Virus record (IMG/VR): IMGVR_UViG_2695420373_000009
Origin: a virus
Taxonomy: Duplodnaviria > Heunggongvirae > Uroviricota > Caudoviricetes
Reading direction: 5' to 3' (one strand)
DNA: 11,334 nucleotides
A program made the translations under genes and the position numbers. This document shows, in pieces, positions 2,514 through 8,250 of the stretch (within the stretch, counting starts at the first letter, position 1; each line of letters starts with the position of its first letter). The notes beneath the pieces were generated by a model. The model was not told the DNA's origin and ran no database searches. It worked only from the letters and a program-made list of their open reading frames with translations.

Positions 2514-3149
2514 ATGAACACTCTCGCAAATATCCAGGAACTCGCGCGCGCACTGCGCAACATGATTCGCACCGGCCTTGTCGTCGAAACCAACCTTAAA
2601 GCCGGTCGCTGCCGTGTGCAGACCGGCGGCATGTGCACCGACTGGCTTCAGTGGCTGACCTGTCGTGCCGGGCGTTCGCGCACATGGTGGGCACCTTCCG
2701 TGGGGGAGCAGGTGCTGATTCTGGCCGTGGGCGGTGAACTTGACACGGCGTTTGTTCTGCCGGGGATTTATTCCGGCGATAACCCCGCGCCGTCTGCGTC
2801 GGCGGATGCCCTGCATATCCGTTTCCCTGACGGGGCGGTGATTGAGTATGAACCTGAAACCAGTGCACTGACGGTAAGCGGAATTAAAACGGCCAGCGTG
2901 ACGGCTTCTGATTCTGTTACTGCCACGGTGCCGGTGGTCATGGTGAAAGCGTCAACCCGCATCACCCTGGACACCCCGGAGGTGGTCTGCACCAACAGAC
3001 TGATTACCGGCACGCTGGAAGTGCAGAAGGGCGGGACGATGCGCGGCAACATTGAACACACCGGCGGTGAACTCTCATCAAACGGTAAGGTACTGCATAC
3101 CCATAAACACCCCGGCGACAGCGGCGGCACAACCGGGAGTCCTCTATGA
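2514..3149 (+). CDS. V: Baseplate spike/hub protein V, 211 aa
   Basis: The six-frame ORF 2448..3149 has no upstream stop, but the start is assigned to the ATG at 2514 (MNTLANIQELARALRNMIRTG...), giving 211 aa, the length recalled for P2 gpV. The upstream extension lies in the intergenic/promoter region. Confidence 0.85.
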   Translation: MNTLANIQELARALRNMIRTGLVVETNLKAGRCRVQTGGMCTDWLQWLTCRAGRSRTWWAPSVGEQVLILAVGGELDTAFVLPGIYSGDNPAPSASADALHIRFPDGAVIEYEPETSALTVSGIKTASVTASDSVTATVPVVMVKASTRITLDTPEVVCTNRLITGTLEVQKGGTMRGNIEHTGGELSSNGKVLHTHKHPGDSGGTTGSPL

Positions 3150-3493
3150 CAGCACGTTATCTCGGAATGAATCGCAGTGATGGCCAGACTGTCACTGACC
3201 TTGAGCATATCAGCCAGAGTATCGGCGATATCCTGCGCACACCGGTCGGCTCACGAGTGATGCGTCGTGATTACGGCTCGTTGCTGGCGTCAATGATTGA
3301 CCAGCCGCAGACCCCGGCGCTTGAGTTGCAGATTAAGGTCGCCTGTTACATGGCGGTGCTGAAATGGGAACCCCGCGTCACCCTGTCATCTGTCACCACG
3401 GCGCGCAGTTTTGACGGGCGAATGACGGTCACGTTAACCGGCCAGCACAACGACACCGGCCAGCCACTTTCGTTAACCATCCCTGTGAGTTGA
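3146..3493 (+). CDS. W: Baseplate wedge protein W (gp25-like), 115 aa
   Basis: ORF 3146..3493; ATGA overlap with the V stop; GGGAG RBS at 3135-3139. Confidence 0.88.
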   Translation: MTARYLGMNRSDGQTVTDLEHISQSIGDILRTPVGSRVMRRDYGSLLASMIDQPQTPALELQIKVACYMAVLKWEPRVTLSSVTTARSFDGRMTVTLTGQHNDTGQPLSLTIPVS

Positions 3494-3497
3494 AACC

Positions 3498-4406
3498 ATG
3501 CCGATTATCGACCTGAACCAGCTACCCGCACCGGATGTGGTCGAGGAGCTGGACTTTGAAACCATTCTTGCCGAACGCAAGGCGACACTGATTTCCCTTT
3601 ACCCGGAAGACCAGCAGGAGGCGGTCGCCCGTACCCTGACGCTGGAATCCGAGCCTCTCGTCAAACTGCTGGAAGAAAACGCTTATCGTGAGCTTATCTG
3701 GCGTCAGCGTGTGAATGAGGCCGCACGGGCGGTGATGCTGGCCTGTGCCGCCGGTAATGACCTTGATGTGATTGGTGCCAATTACAACACCACGCGCCTG
3801 ATTATCACCCCGGCAGATGATTCGACTATCCCGCCGACACCGGCAGTGATGGAGTCTGACACCGATTATCGTCTGCGTATTCAGCAGGCGTTTGAGGGCT
3901 TAAGCGTCGCCGGGTCGGTGGGAGCCTATCAGTATCATGGTCGCAGTGCTGACGGGCGTGTCGCGGATATTTCTGTCACCAGTCCGTCTCCGGCCTGCGT
4001 CACCATCTCTGTGCTGTCACGTGAAAATAACGGCGTCGCATCCGAAGACCTGCTGGCTGTGGTGCGTAACGCCCTTAATGGCGAGGACGTCAGGCCGGTG
4101 GCCGACCGCGTGACCGTGCAGTCTGCCGCCATCGTTGAATACCAGATAAACGCCACGCTTTACCTTTACCCTGGTCCCGAAAGCGAACCCATACGCGCTG
4201 CCGCCGTGAAAAAACTGGAATCGTACATCACGGCACAGCACCGGCTGGGGCGTGACATCCGTCTGTCTGCCATTTATGCCGCTTTGCATGTGGAAGGCGT
4301 GCAGCGTGTTGAACTGGCTTCACCACTGGCCGACATCGTGCTCAACAGTACGCAGGCGTCTTTCTGTACCGAATACCGCGTCGTGACCGGAGGCTCGGAT
4401 GAGTGA
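3498..4406 (+). CDS. J: Baseplate protein J, 302 aa
   Basis: ORF 3498..4406; length and position match P2 gpJ; the downstream gene start overlaps its 3' end. Confidence 0.88.
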   Translation: MPIIDLNQLPAPDVVEELDFETILAERKATLISLYPEDQQEAVARTLTLESEPLVKLLEENAYRELIWRQRVNEAARAVMLACAAGNDLDVIGANYNTTRLIITPADDSTIPPTPAVMESDTDYRLRIQQAFEGLSVAGSVGAYQYHGRSADGRVADISVTSPSPACVTISVLSRENNGVASEDLLAVVRNALNGEDVRPVADRVTVQSAAIVEYQINATLYLYPGPESEPIRAAAVKKLESYITAQHRLGRDIRLSAIYAALHVEGVQRVELASPLADIVLNSTQASFCTEYRVVTGGSDE

Positions 4407-5010
4407 TTCGCGACTGCTGCCGACCGGCTCATCACCGCTTGAAGTCGCTGCTGCAAAAGCCTGTGCGGAAATTGAAAAAACGCCGGTCAGTATTCGTGAG
4501 CTGTGGAACCCGGACACCTGCCCGGCAAATCTGCTGCCGTGGCTGGCGTGGTCATTTTCGGTTGACCGCTGGGATGATAAGTGGCCGGAAGCGACAAAAC
4601 GCGCTGTTATCCGCGATGCGTATTTCATTCACTGCCATAAGGGCACTATAGGCGCAATCCGGCGTGTGGTGGAGCCGCTCGGCTATCTGATTGAGGTGAG
4701 GGAGTGGTGGCAACTCAATGAGGAGCCGGGGACGTTCCGTATCGTTGTTGGCGTGCTTGAGCAGGGTATTACCGAGGAAATGTATCAGGAGCTGGAGCGC
4801 CTCGTTGCTGATGCAAAACCGGCAAGCCGCCATCTGACGGGACTGGCTATCAGTTTAAGTACAACCGGCAACATTTTTGCCGGTGCGGGATGCTATCACG
4901 GCGACGCCCTGACAGTTTATCCCTACACCCCGGAGGCCATTATTGTCGGAGGGGATTATTTCCCGGCCTCGGCCATTCATTTAATTGATAACCTGAGAGT
5001 AAACGCATGA
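4399..5010 (+). CDS. I: Baseplate/tail-fibre attachment protein I, 203 aa
   Basis: ORF 4399..5010 with GGAGG RBS; N-terminus MSDSRLLPTGSSPLEVAAAK... recognised as gpI-type; stop overlaps the H start (ATGA at 5007-5010). Confidence 0.85.
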   Translation: MSDSRLLPTGSSPLEVAAAKACAEIEKTPVSIRELWNPDTCPANLLPWLAWSFSVDRWDDKWPEATKRAVIRDAYFIHCHKGTIGAIRRVVEPLGYLIEVREWWQLNEEPGTFRIVVGVLEQGITEEMYQELERLVADAKPASRHLTGLAISLSTTGNIFAGAGCYHGDALTVYPYTPEAIIVGGDYFPASAIHLIDNLRVNA

Positions 5011-6128
5011 CAGTGAAATACTACGCCATTCTGACTAATCAGGGCGCGGCACGGCTGGCTAACGCGACGATGCTCGGCAGTAAGCTGAATCTGACGCAAA
5101 TGGCCGTTGGTGATGCAAATGGTGTCTTGCCGACACCAGACCCGGCACAGACAAAACTGATTAACCAGAAACGCATCGCGCCGCTGAATCTTCTGAGTGT
5201 TGACCCGAACAACCAGAGCCAGATTATTGCGGAGCAAATCATCCCTGAGAACGAGGGCGGATTCTGGATCCGTGAGATTGGGCTTTATGATGATGAAGGC
5301 GTACTCATTGCGGTGGCGAACTGCCCGGAAACGTACAAACCGCAGTTGCAGGAAGGCAGCGGTCGTACCCAGACTATCCGCATGATTCTGGTTGTCACGA
5401 ATACCGAAGCTATCACGCTGAAAATCGACCCGTCGGTGGTACTGGCGACCCGTAAATACGTGGATGATGAAGTCCTGGAATTAAGGCTGTATGTGGATGA
5501 CCAGATGAGGAACCATATTGCCGCACAGGATCCTCATACCCAGTATGCACAGAAACATAATCCGACATTTACCGGAGAACCAAAAGCGCCGACGCCTGCC
5601 GCAGGAAATAACACCACGCGGATTGCGACCACTGAGTTTGTTCAGGCCGCTATTACCGCTCTGATTAACGGTGCGCCAGCCACGCTGGACACACTGAAAG
5701 AAATTGCCGCAGCCATTAACAATGACCCGAAATTCAGCACCACCATTAACAATGCGCTGTCAGGTAAGCAGCCACTGGATGAGACGCTGACTCATTTGAG
5801 TGGAAAGGATGTTGCCGGTCTTCTCGCATACCTTGGTTTTGGAGAAGGTGCTAACTGGGTTATGTTACCTGGAGGAATGATAATTCAGCGTGTTTATCTT
5901 GGATTTCCTGTTGGCACCAATGTAAGACACATAACTTTCCCCCGGTCGTTTACAACAACGAACTATTCCATCTCAATTAACTGGAATGATATCGGTACTG
6001 TAACAACTGAAACACAATCGCCAGCAAATGTGGCGGTTGTTCATCAAACAAAATCATTAACAGGGGCCAGCATCTGGCAGGCAGGTCCCGGGGGATTTAA
6101 TGTGGACATTATAGCGGTGGGGTATTGA
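5007..6128 (+). CDS. H: Tail fibre protein H, 373 aa: constant N-terminal part (5007-5834) fused in the present orientation to variable C-terminal cassette Sv (5835-6128)
   Basis: ORF 5007..6128; N-terminal region resembles P2 H / Mu S / P1 S constant domains and contains a tail-fibre repeat-like segment ([31 protein letters not shown]). A gix-like crossover site lies in frame at 5821-5846. Confidence 0.85.
5821..5846 (+). repeat. gix/hix-like 26-bp recombination site, left boundary of the invertible segment
   Basis: TTCTCGCATACC-TT-GGTTTTGGAGAA: two 12-bp imperfect inverted half-sites around a 2-bp core, matching the Din-family pattern (TTATCCAAAACC-NN-GGTTT...). Bases 5833-5850 form a 17/18 inverted repeat with 7573-7590. 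Confidence 0.7.
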
Positions 6129-6129
6129 T

Positions 6130-6558
6130 ATGTACGTATGGAGCGCTAAAGCAAATGGCTTTTTCCCCATATCGGAGAAAGAAAAATTTGAGGCATCAGG
6201 TCTGTGGCCTGATGATGGTGTAATAGTCAGTGAGGAAGAACATAAAAAGTTATTTATGGATATTCCACCAGGAAAACAGATTGGAACACTGAATGGAAAA
6301 CCAGCACTGATAGATATTCCTCAGCCGACCAAAAAGGAATTAATAGCTATTGCTGAAGTTAAAAAATCCCAATTACGGGAAAAAGCTGACAGTGAAATAT
6401 CCTGGCGTCAGGATGCTGTTGATGCTGATATCGCAACTGATGAAGAAACTTCAACTCTCACCGAATGGAAGAAATACCGTGTGCTGCTGATGCGTGTTGA
6501 TACTTCAACAGCACCCGATATTGAATGGCCTACGCCTCCGGCAGTTCAGGCCAGATGA
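6130..6558 (+). CDS. Tail fibre assembly protein (Tfa; P2 G / Mu U family), 142 aa
   Basis: ORF 6130..6558 starting 2 nt after the H stop; C-terminal motif ...[26 protein letters not shown] is typical of the Tfa family (compare lambda Tfa ...[22 protein letters not shown]). Confidence 0.8.
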
Positions 6559-7123
6559 CATCCGGCGCGGTGCTGGTATCTGTTGCCGTCACCGCGTCAA
6601 TGTAATCCAGCACGGCGTTAAGTCGGGTTGTTTCTGCCTGAGTCAGTTTCCGTCCGGCCTGTAATTTCAGCTGAATCAGACTAATGGAAGCCATTGCTGC
6701 ATCAATCAGTGACTGGCGCTGTGCTTCTGCTGCTTCTACTGCGGCGTTATGCTGTGCCTCAGTATCTGTCACCCATTTCTCACCATCCCATTTATCATAT
6801 GTCGTTAACGGTGAAAGCGTGACATAACCGTTTTTGATGGCACCGATATAATCCACTGTAACAGCTGCGCCATTTTCTGTTGAGTAAACAGTCTCATTGC
6901 GATGGTCTTCTTCATGGCTCCATCCCTTACCCGTGAATACTGCCACTTGCCCCGGAATGTATTCGCCCGGGTCAATACCAGTGGAACAGGCGGGCATACT
7001 TACGCCAGTATTAATATATTCATCAGACCAGCCCGTATATTCAGACGTTACTGCATCATAATAATAACAACGCATATCACCCGGCACTGTAGCCAGCCCA
7101 TTTTCATCAAAAACAGGTTTCAT
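6530..7123 (-). CDS. Alternative tail fibre assembly protein (Tfa'), 197 aa, partner of the Sv' cassette
   Basis: Minus-strand ORF 6530..7123; C-terminal ...[30 protein letters not shown] carries the same Tfa motif; its start overlaps the Sv' stop (TAATG on the minus strand). Confidence 0.8.
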
Positions 7124-7629
7124 TATGCAGCCCTCACAATATAATTAAAGGCGATGTTACGTGGACGGTTTTCATTAGCTGTTGGCACGACACGAGAGGC
7201 GTCGAATCCAAGGTCATCGGTTTTGCCTATAGCAGTTGTGTTATTCGCCATTGTCGCTGTTCGTGTTCCTGCATCGTAAAAAGCCCCTCTGATTGCATCA
7301 AAAGACATGCCGATCCCGCCATCTGCGAATCCCTCAATATTTCTTATTGCATCCCCCTGTGAAGATAATAATTGTCGCCCGGCATCTACACCACGCCCGT
7401 CATCCCAGCCACGAATAAATTCACCGCGTAAATCAGGCAATTTATTTGTCGGGTAAGCCTTTGCCAGTTCCGGGTATTCTTCAGCAGAAAAAGCCGCACC
7501 ATTGCATTTTAGCCAGCCTGTTGGCGGAGTGGAGGAAGGCCACGGGACAGGCACACCAACGGGTAATGCCGAACCTTCTCCCAAACCAACGTTTATAAAA
7601 ATGCAGAGATAACGGGCAACTGGCATCAT
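7123..7629 (-). CDS. Alternative tail-fibre C-terminal cassette Sv'; silent in this orientation, predicted to fuse to H after inversion
   Basis: Minus-strand ORF 7123..7629; the crossover site maps to its codons 14-19 (VGLGEG) in the same frame as in H; contains a tail-collar-like receptor-binding motif (PWPSSTPPTGWLKCNGAAFSAEEYPELAKAY). The first 13 codons lie outside the invertible segment and have no evident RBS. Confidence 0.7.
   Translation of the reverse strand: MMPVARYLCIFINVGLGEGSALPVGVPVPWPSSTPPTGWLKCNGAAFSAEEYPELAKAYPTNKLPDLRGEFIRGWDDGRGVDAGRQLLSSQGDAIRNIEGFADGGIGMSFDAIRGAFYDAGTRTATMANNTTAIGKTDDLGFDASRVVPTANENRPRNIAFNYIVRAA
7576..7601 (-). repeat. gix/hix-like 26-bp recombination site, right boundary of the invertible segment, inverted relative to 5821-5846
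   Basis: Plus strand TTCTCCCAAACC-AA-CGTTTATAAAAA; the inner half-site matches the reverse complement of the site-1 inner half at 11/12 positions; core AA is the complement of the site-1 core TT. Confidence 0.7.
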
Positions 7630-7656
7630 CTCCGGTTTTTATTCAGGGGGATGCTC

Positions 7657-8250
7657 ATGCTTATTGGCTATGTACGCGTGTCAACAAATGACCAGAACAC
7701 GGAATTGCAGCGTAACGCGCTGGAGTGCGCAGGATGCGAGCGGATTTTTGAGGATAAAATCAGCGGCACGAAGTCCGACCGACCGGGACTGAAAAAACTG
7801 CTCAGAACATTATCAGCAGGTGACACTCTGGTAGTCTGGAAGCTGGACAGGCTGGGGCGTAGTATGCGGCATCTGGTCATTCTGGTTGAGGAACTGCGCG
7901 AACGCGGCGTTAATTTTCGCAGTCTGACGGATGCTATTGATACCAGCACGCCGATGGGGCGTTTTTTCTTTCATGTGATGGGTGCCCTGGCTGAAATGGA
8001 GCGAGAACTCATTGTCGAGCGGACACGCGCCGGACTGGAAGCGGCCAGAGCCAAAGGTCGTATTGGTGGCAGACGTCCGAAACTCACCGCGAGTGAGTGG
8101 GAGCAGGTCGGACGGTTGCTGGCTGCGGGGGAATCTCGTCAACGTGTGGCGCTGATTTTTGATATTGGCCTGTCCACGCTCTATAAAAAATTCCCCTCAT
8201 CAGCGGCAAAGAATAAATTGTGTCATCCCTTAGCCAACCGGGACAAATAG
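7657..8250 (+). CDS. Site-specific DNA invertase, serine recombinase of the Gin/Hin/Cin/Pin (Din) family
   Basis: ORF 7651..8250; protein MLIGYVRVSTNDQNTELQRNALECAGCERIFEDKISG...GRFFFHVMGALAEMERELIVERTRAGLEAARAKGRIGGRRPKL... is near-collinear with recalled Mu Gin, including the catalytic Ser in YVRVS. Start placed at the ATG at 7657 (GGGGG at 7646-7650 gives better spacing than the ATG at 7651). Confidence 0.9.
   Translation: MLIGYVRVSTNDQNTELQRNALECAGCERIFEDKISGTKSDRPGLKKLLRTLSAGDTLVVWKLDRLGRSMRHLVILVEELRERGVNFRSLTDAIDTSTPMGRFFFHVMGALAEMERELIVERTRAGLEAARAKGRIGGRRPKLTASEWEQVGRLLAAGESRQRVALIFDIGLSTLYKKFPSSAAKNKLCHPLANRDK

Follow-up and report, generated by a model that had tools for sequence, protein, structure and literature searches.

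Which surface structures could a phage reach by exchanging the tip of its tail fiber? We considered this question for the tail fiber gene H in an 11,334-nucleotide stretch of Caudoviricetes DNA (IMG/VR record IMGVR_UViG_2695420373_000009), which we call the window and which holds the late genes of a P2-like (Peduovirus) prophage. A first-pass annotation of the window had proposed that a silent alternative tip (Sv') carries a tail-collar-like receptor-binding motif, that the expressed tip (Sv) has no such motif, and that the two orientations of the segment present structurally unrelated distal domains, probably for different receptors. We think that the window very probably encodes a host-range switch, which would exchange a gp53-like tip for a tail-collar tip, and back again, by DNA inversion. 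Specifically, a Gin/Pin-type invertase would recombine two inverted 26-bp sites (coordinates are in Table 1). The 1.75-kb segment between them would flip, so that an alternative end of 154 codons, with a chaperone of its own, would take the place of the last 97 codons of H and a chaperone gene. In the sequenced orientation, the fiber would end in a lectin-like β-jellyroll of the gp53/R-pyocin-foot type. In the inverted orientation, it would end in a tail-collar module of the T4 gp12/gp37 type, with a conserved scaffold and a variable insert of some 60 residues that would close back on the collar via a conserved C-terminal RPRNIAFNYIVRAA.

Families of the two tips

The collar-like peptide of the silent tip (PWPSSTPPTGWLKCNGAAFSAEEYPELAKAY, minus strand, 7453-7545) lies within an open reading frame (ORF) at 7123-7629. 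Sv' matches the entire Collar model of Pfam (PF07484, positions 1-57 of 57) with 57.7 bits (E = 1.1e-15), and the gathering cut-off for this family is 24 bits. It also matches phrog_523, "tail collar fiber protein" (E = 1.2e-75). We used phmmer to compare Sv' to the sequences in the PDB, and the hits included the tip of T4 gp37 (2xgf, E = 1.8e-15), T4 gp12 (1ocy, E = 1.6e-5), and 5iv5 (E = 8.6e-5). Residues 8-153 of Sv' also aligned, nearly from end to end, with residues 154-303 of the short tail fiber of phage phiTE (9cuy, E = 5.8e-32). Judging from these matches, the resemblance to collar domains is not due to chance. The collar tip is common, with 743 matching phage records. (A "collar domain" has also been described in Ur-lambda Stf [PMC12617516]; that N-terminal structure is unrelated to this one, and we did not use it.) The tail-collar signature that had been assigned to 7123-7587 is thus present, and this interval agrees with the part of the ORF that is inside the invertible segment, between the crossover dinucleotide at 7588/7589 and the stop codon at 7123-7125.

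The tip that is now in frame does lack a collar motif, as we found no match of Sv to Pfam's Collar family. However, it is not devoid of recognizable motifs: it is recognizable as a lectin-like domain of the gp53/R-pyocin-foot type. If Sv is scanned alone (98 residues), it matches Gp53-like_C (PF21882) with 27.5 bits (gathering threshold 24.9). In the full-length H protein the same domain scores 22.5 bits, which is slightly under the cut-off. All 13 members of the small family around Sv match PF21882 (best E = 1.1e-10). In its fold, Sv is a discoidin-like jellyroll, like AP22 gp53 and the foot of the R pyocin, and a Foldseek comparison to viral models returned gp53-like tail fibers. Further down the list of matches are the C-terminal domains of the LKA1 and phi297 tailspikes, Helix pomatia agglutinin, discoidin I, and SLL-2. 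Salazar et al. obtained the same list for the foot domain of the pyocin; in their reading, this domain is a lectin of the discoidin type that uses its distal loops to bind the sugars of lipopolysaccharide (LPS), in a manner specific to the subtype (PMC6363177). In contrast to the foot of the R-type pyocin fiber and the C-terminal domain of AP22 gp53, Sv directly follows the shaft, without the pyocin's head and shaft domains. Relatives of Sv are rare: an exhaustive HMMER search of 1.84 billion representative proteins found 21 of them (E ≤ 0.001), and no match turned up by tblastn in the genome records of 50,697 phages.

We did not detect any homology between the two tips. Comparing the alignments of the two tip families with hhalign gave a probability of 0.1%, and BLASTP of Sv against Sv' aligned solely 7 junction residues that are encoded by the crossover site. 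Their profile matches place the tips in two separate families, Collar (PF07484) for Sv' and Gp53-like_C (PF21882) for Sv. This bears out the proposal that the two orientations present unrelated distal domains: Sv' does match a family of fiber tips, and Sv matches a different one. The tips are probably unrelated in structure as well, going by their family assignments rather than by a pair of models.

The inversion switch and its two orientations

The left and right crossover sites form an inverted repeat, and their central dinucleotides (TT and AA) are complementary, as inversion demands. A degenerate pattern search of the window found exactly two crossover sites, versus 0.01 expected by chance. 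This rules out a third site in the window, such as is found in one prophage of enteropathogenic Escherichia coli (EPEC). The invertase contains a resolvase domain (PF00239, E = 8e-53) and a C-terminal helix-turn-helix (HTH_7, PF02796, E = 5.5e-13), and it retains the catalytic serine in its N-terminus (MLIGYVRVST). It is 86% identical to PinE from K-12 and 78% identical to Gin from phage Mu. Because its identity to pinE and gin is high, the invertase gene is likely to contain a Fis-dependent recombinational enhancer in its 5' part.

We simulated inversion between the central dinucleotides. Residues 1-276 of H were joined in frame to the 154 residues of Sv', which gives a protein of 430 amino acids (H'). 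With its inverted pair of sites, an invertase, two cognate chaperones, and an in-frame H', the switch looks complete. Inversion was demonstrated experimentally for P2-like prophages in EPEC E2348/69 (PMC4272514), and we infer that it takes place in this strain.

Both orientations occur naturally. We counted junctions across 5,426 complete E. coli genomes (so the counts are across genomes and not within one culture). Of these genomes, 294 have a contiguous H-Sv' junction, and 17 have a contiguous H-Sv junction as in the window. In 83 genomes, Sv lies flipped beside the invertase (identity up to 99.3%), so that, among complete E. coli genomes, the silent position of Sv is more common than its fusion to the P2 H shaft. 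The annotated fiber of E. coli NCTC8623 has 430 amino acids and is 97.7% identical to H' over its full length, and the gp53-like cassette of that prophage is in the silent position. Also, the P2-like prophage of 28A18CPO003A contains the window's Sv (97% identity) and Tfa (100% identity) in the silent position. Because the same cassette is in frame in the window, it occurs in both states in nature.

These observations bear on an alternative view, in which Sv' would be a gene remnant in decay and the segment would no longer switch. In E. coli NMBU-W12E19, the homologous feature, a silent collar cassette at locus 3624-4085, has the RefSeq label of a pseudogene ("incomplete; missing N-terminus"), and stfE from K-12 is likewise annotated as a pseudogene. 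But Sv' has no interruption of its frame between the crossover and the stop codon and fuses in frame with H; its cognate chaperone and the invertase are intact; other genomes have the fused form as an annotated protein of full length, with 97.7% identity; and both orientations are common. We reject decay as highly improbable. The pseudogene label is a systematic mis-annotation of the half-genes of invertible segments.

Chaperones, hypervariable insert, and receptors

Both of the tfa genes encode members of Caudo_TAP (PF02413) that score above the threshold. Each gene lies directly 3' of its own tip, and each protein has a variable N-terminal domain and a conserved C-terminal domain. Tfa and Tfa' have only their last ~64 residues in common (36% identity). 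Tfa' is 63% identical to TfaE from K-12, with the divergence confined to the N-terminal ~110 amino acids. The 3' ends of the two chaperone genes overlap by 29 bp (6530-6558). The same overlap is found in the e14 element of K-12 (tfaP/tfaE), in pro483, and in NCTC8623, CDF6, and 28A18CPO003A, so the junction of the two half-cassettes is itself conserved.

To see which parts of the silent cassette vary, we compared the window's collar tip to those of K-12 e14, 28A18CPO003A, and pro483. From the crossover to about 7412, the DNA is 89-100% identical to these three elements. Between 7411 and 6793 the identity falls to 7-67%, and beyond this block, starting at 6792 and through the end of tfa', it is again above 89%. 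The N-terminal half of Tfa' co-varies with the tip. This block of ~600 bp is replaced wholesale between collar subtypes, and it looks like a cassette that is swapped by homologous recombination in the conserved arms. Tail fiber chaperones are modular: a variable N-terminal domain binds the fiber, and a conserved helical C-terminal domain drives trimerization (North et al. 2019, summarized in PMC9608196). A variable block that comprises the tip and the N-terminal part of the chaperone is consistent with this model.

The alignment of Sv' to T4 gp37 (2xgf) is in two pieces. Residues 7-85 of Sv' align with chain residues 27-99, and residues 134-155 of Sv' align with 220-242, which are the last 23 residues. 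Therefore, the chain of Sv' should exit the collar and return to it, as in gp37. In gp37, the collar is the base, and the small head at the end of the HxH needle touches the receptor (PMC12609058). The collar of gp37 is a base, and in the elements that we compared it is the insert and not the collar that is hypervariable, so the collar motif would be a conserved scaffold instead of the site that binds the receptor. In other words, the first-pass annotation placed the motif in the correct family, but the receptor-binding role that it gave to the motif does not hold up. Specificity is probably determined by the hypervariable insert, which would be swapped along with the N-terminal domain of the chaperone, and the collar motif probably serves as a recombination handle as well.

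The inserts themselves are of different kinds. Between its collar segments, T4 gp37 has a long HxH needle and the head that contacts the receptor, whereas Sv' has only about 50-60 residues and no histidine. More precisely, the insert of Sv' (residues 80-141, encoded by 7168-7353) contains zero histidines, and neither does the rest of Sv'. The corresponding inserts of StfE from K-12 (DHAHG), of the collar tip from 28A18CPO003A (SHGHW), and of Klebsiella phage Kp4849-2 (DHSHN) all contain HxH. In this motif, they resemble the metal-binding needle of gp37. Unlike the HxH subtypes, Sv' from the window aligns over its full length with phiTE and gp12-like proteins. The inserts on this one collar scaffold seem to fall into two structural classes.

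What does this imply for the receptors? Because the tip ends are unrelated in sequence (and, by extension, probably in fold), the two kinds of virions should adsorb via different surface structures. Most likely, these differ as LPS epitopes or as other carbohydrate epitopes. By analogy to the G segment of Mu, the C segment of P1, and the subtypes of R pyocins, it is plausible that the two tips have different receptors, as had been proposed.

Several points weigh against a switch between different receptors and between two well-defined folds. First, the class of receptor might be the same for both tips, because both types of tip occur on fibers that bind LPS. Second, an AlphaFold model of the Sv' monomer had a pLDDT (predicted local distance difference test) of 34.4 and a pTM (predicted template modeling score) of 0.23. 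This model was built from a shallow alignment of nine sequences, of which eight were 92-99% identical. When we sought a deeper alignment by seeding the homolog search with a diverse alignment, it returned almost only sequences with >94% identity. With so low a pLDDT, the fold that we assign to Sv' rests on its homology to solved collar domains. Third, 9cuy could not be used as a structural template, as just residues 3-92 of the phiTE fiber were modeled (PMC11972413) and the residues that match Sv' are not among them.

The first of these points leads to another explanation for the switch: the tips might differ in structure but see the same class of receptor (sugars of the LPS core or O-antigen), with differences in their finer specificity, so that inversion would tune which LPS types are within the host range. 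The S and S' fibers of Mu, the S and S' fibers of P1, and T4 gp12 are all LPS binders, which fits this idea. So does the gp53/pyocin-foot fold, which binds sugars in the manner of a lectin; R pyocins attach to core LPS (PMC6363177). Also, in many E. coli prophages, the same shafts carry either collar-type or gp53-type tips. On the other hand, T4 gp37 and lambda Stf contain collars and can bind the porin OmpC, and the ligand of either tip is not identifiable from sequence. A shared class of receptor is a serious possibility, but we consider it somewhat doubtful, and we favor a switch between different surface structures.

Another role for the silent tip is suggested by the 13-codon leader that precedes it. 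The leader is outside of the invertible segment and gives the silent tip an ATG start, so that the tip might be made as a free protein that coats the receptor and protects the lysogen. The window's leader parallels the StfE/StfE2 leader of e14, and StfE2, which is a fusion of leader and tip, is reported to block the adsorption of phage T2 (PMC12529663). The same leader is found in NCTC8623 and 28A18CPO003A, ahead of their silent gp53-like tips; that is, it is retained before whichever tip is silent. However, a promoter scan of the minus strand upstream of the ORF at 7123-7629 did not predict any σ70-like site. The GGAG there immediately abuts the ATG of the leader, which is poor spacing for ribosome binding. 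Furthermore, it is uncertain if the tip would function without the fiber shaft and possibly without trimerization. Finally, the leader region must hold the promoter of the invertase, and this alone is enough to explain its conservation. We therefore think that a protective free tip is unlikely, and that Sv' more probably serves as the alternative end of the fiber. If a leader-fused free tip is made, then the switch would be a prophage-encoded defense toggle as well as a host-range toggle. It is similarly improbable, in our view, that Sv uses a receptor of no characterized coliphage, as the very small size of its subfamily (21 relatives and no match in phage genomes) might hint, or else that the leader-fused silent tip masks a receptor, as claimed for StfE2.

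Known switches and the surrounding genes

The closest known counterpart is the P segment of e14 in K-12 (stfP-tfaP / tfaE-stfE / pinE), which has the same gene order as the window and also has the 29-bp overlap of the chaperone genes. The repeats of the P segment share a crossover core, CCTTCTCCCAAACCAA, with the sites in the window (PMC12529663). e14 has the same pairing of tip families: StfP is a Gp53-like_C tip (E = 8.4e-16), and StfE is a Collar tip (E = 1.4e-15). Given this precedent, the finding in the window holds but is an ordinary one. The two elements do differ. The tips of e14 are on a short fiber stub (~100 amino acids), on a remnant of a Mu-like baseplate, whereas those in the window are on the P2 H shaft. 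BLASTP does not detect any similarity between the window's Sv and StfP. The window's Sv' and StfE have just the scaffold in common (61% identity overall), as StfE has a different insert, with HxH.

The combination of a collar tip and a gp53-like tip is also found in pro483 and in an e14-like element of E. coli CDF6. Among P2-like elements, those of pro483, EPEC E2348/69, NCTC8623, and 28A18CPO003A have an architecture identical to the window's (I-H-Tfa-Tfa'-Sv'-invertase-sheath), but their partner cassettes have been reassorted, with other subtypes of the gp53-like tip in pro483 and NCTC8623 and another subtype of collar insert in 28A18CPO003A. In CDF6 (NZ_CP158429.1, locus 2723-5389), the whole invertible module, with both tips, both chaperones, and the invertase, is present at 94.4% identity. 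There it sits behind a baseplate of the Mu/e14 type (genes for gp46, gp47, and YmfQ) and is fused to a fiber of only 194 amino acids. Therefore, the module has been exchanged between unrelated types of tail.

The G segment of Mu (S/U, S'/U', and gin) has the same mechanism and logic, with Caudo_TAP chaperones that switch along with the tip. The C segment of P1 shares this mechanism and logic. The alternative ends in Mu are also from different Pfam families (Gp34_trimer and a fiber repeat in S, gp37_C in S'), so switching between unrelated tips is an established pattern. The variable parts in Mu are much longer (~335 and ~320 amino acids) and belong to other tip families than those of the window; BLASTP found no similarity between them and either of the window's tips.

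Invertible tips from unrelated families are textbook knowledge for Mu, P1, and e14, so our results do not imply a new mechanism. The element is already known in kind, and the rare gp53-like subtype of Sv is mildly unusual. What our results provide is a correct annotation, at the level of domains, for both fiber isoforms of a common type of E. coli prophage. Also, the compact unit of ~600 bp that is swapped (the tip insert and the N-terminal domain of the chaperone, with conserved flanks) could guide the engineering of tail fibers and tailocins.

The rest of the window is consistent with a P2-like element. H contains the N-terminal domain Phage_tail_fib (PF12571, E = 1e-62), which attaches the fiber to the baseplate, and the gene is in the late-gene context of P2 (J, I, H ... 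FI, FII). Across I and the first part of H (the first 760 nucleotides of the query), the DNA is 98% identical to phage P2. The gene order matches the annotation of phage pro483 and of homologous loci in E. coli chromosomes.

Table 1. Positions of the features discussed in the text, within the 11,334-nucleotide window
Feature	Position	Strand	Comments
H, tail fiber gene	5007-6128	+	after the baseplate genes
Constant part of H (residues 1-276)	5007-5833	+	common to both isoforms; PF12571
Left 26-bp crossover site, hix/gix/pix-like	5821-5846		within H; TTCTCGCATACC-TT-GGTTTTGGAGAA
Sv, tip now in frame, 97 amino acids (H residues 277-373)	5834-6128	+	Gp53-like_C / R-pyocin-foot lectin-like jellyroll
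Tfa, cognate to Sv, 142 amino acids	6130-6558	+	PF02413 Caudo_TAP, E = 1e-33; phrog_188, tail fiber assembly protein
Tfa', cognate to Sv', 197 amino acids	6530-7123	-	PF02413, E = 5.3e-28; convergent with Tfa
Hypervariable block	6793-7411	-	C-terminal two thirds of Sv' and N-terminal ~110 amino acids of Tfa'; from DNA and protein alignments
Sv', silent alternative tip, 154 amino acids and stop	7123-7588	-	PF07484, PDB sequence matches, phrog_523
Stretch matched by Pfam Collar	7414-7557	-	includes the motif of the first-pass annotation (7453-7545)
Right 26-bp crossover site	7576-7601		just upstream of the invertase; TTCTCCCAAACC-AA-CGTTTATAAAAA
13-codon leader, MMPVARYLCIFIN	7591-7629	-	not part of the invertible segment; supplies the ATG start of the silent tip's ORF (7123-7629)
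Serine DNA invertase (Gin/Pin/Hin/Cin type)	7657-8250	+	PF00239 and PF02796; alternative start at 7651
Lysis and tail-completion genes, then baseplate V, W, J, I	upstream of H
Sheath, tube, and tape-measure genes	3' of the recombinase gene

Downstream of the lysozyme-like and holin-like genes, there are two ORFs in different frames that overlap (1002-1427 and 1165-1572), which we take to be the layout expected of the lysB/lysC (spanin) genes of P2.
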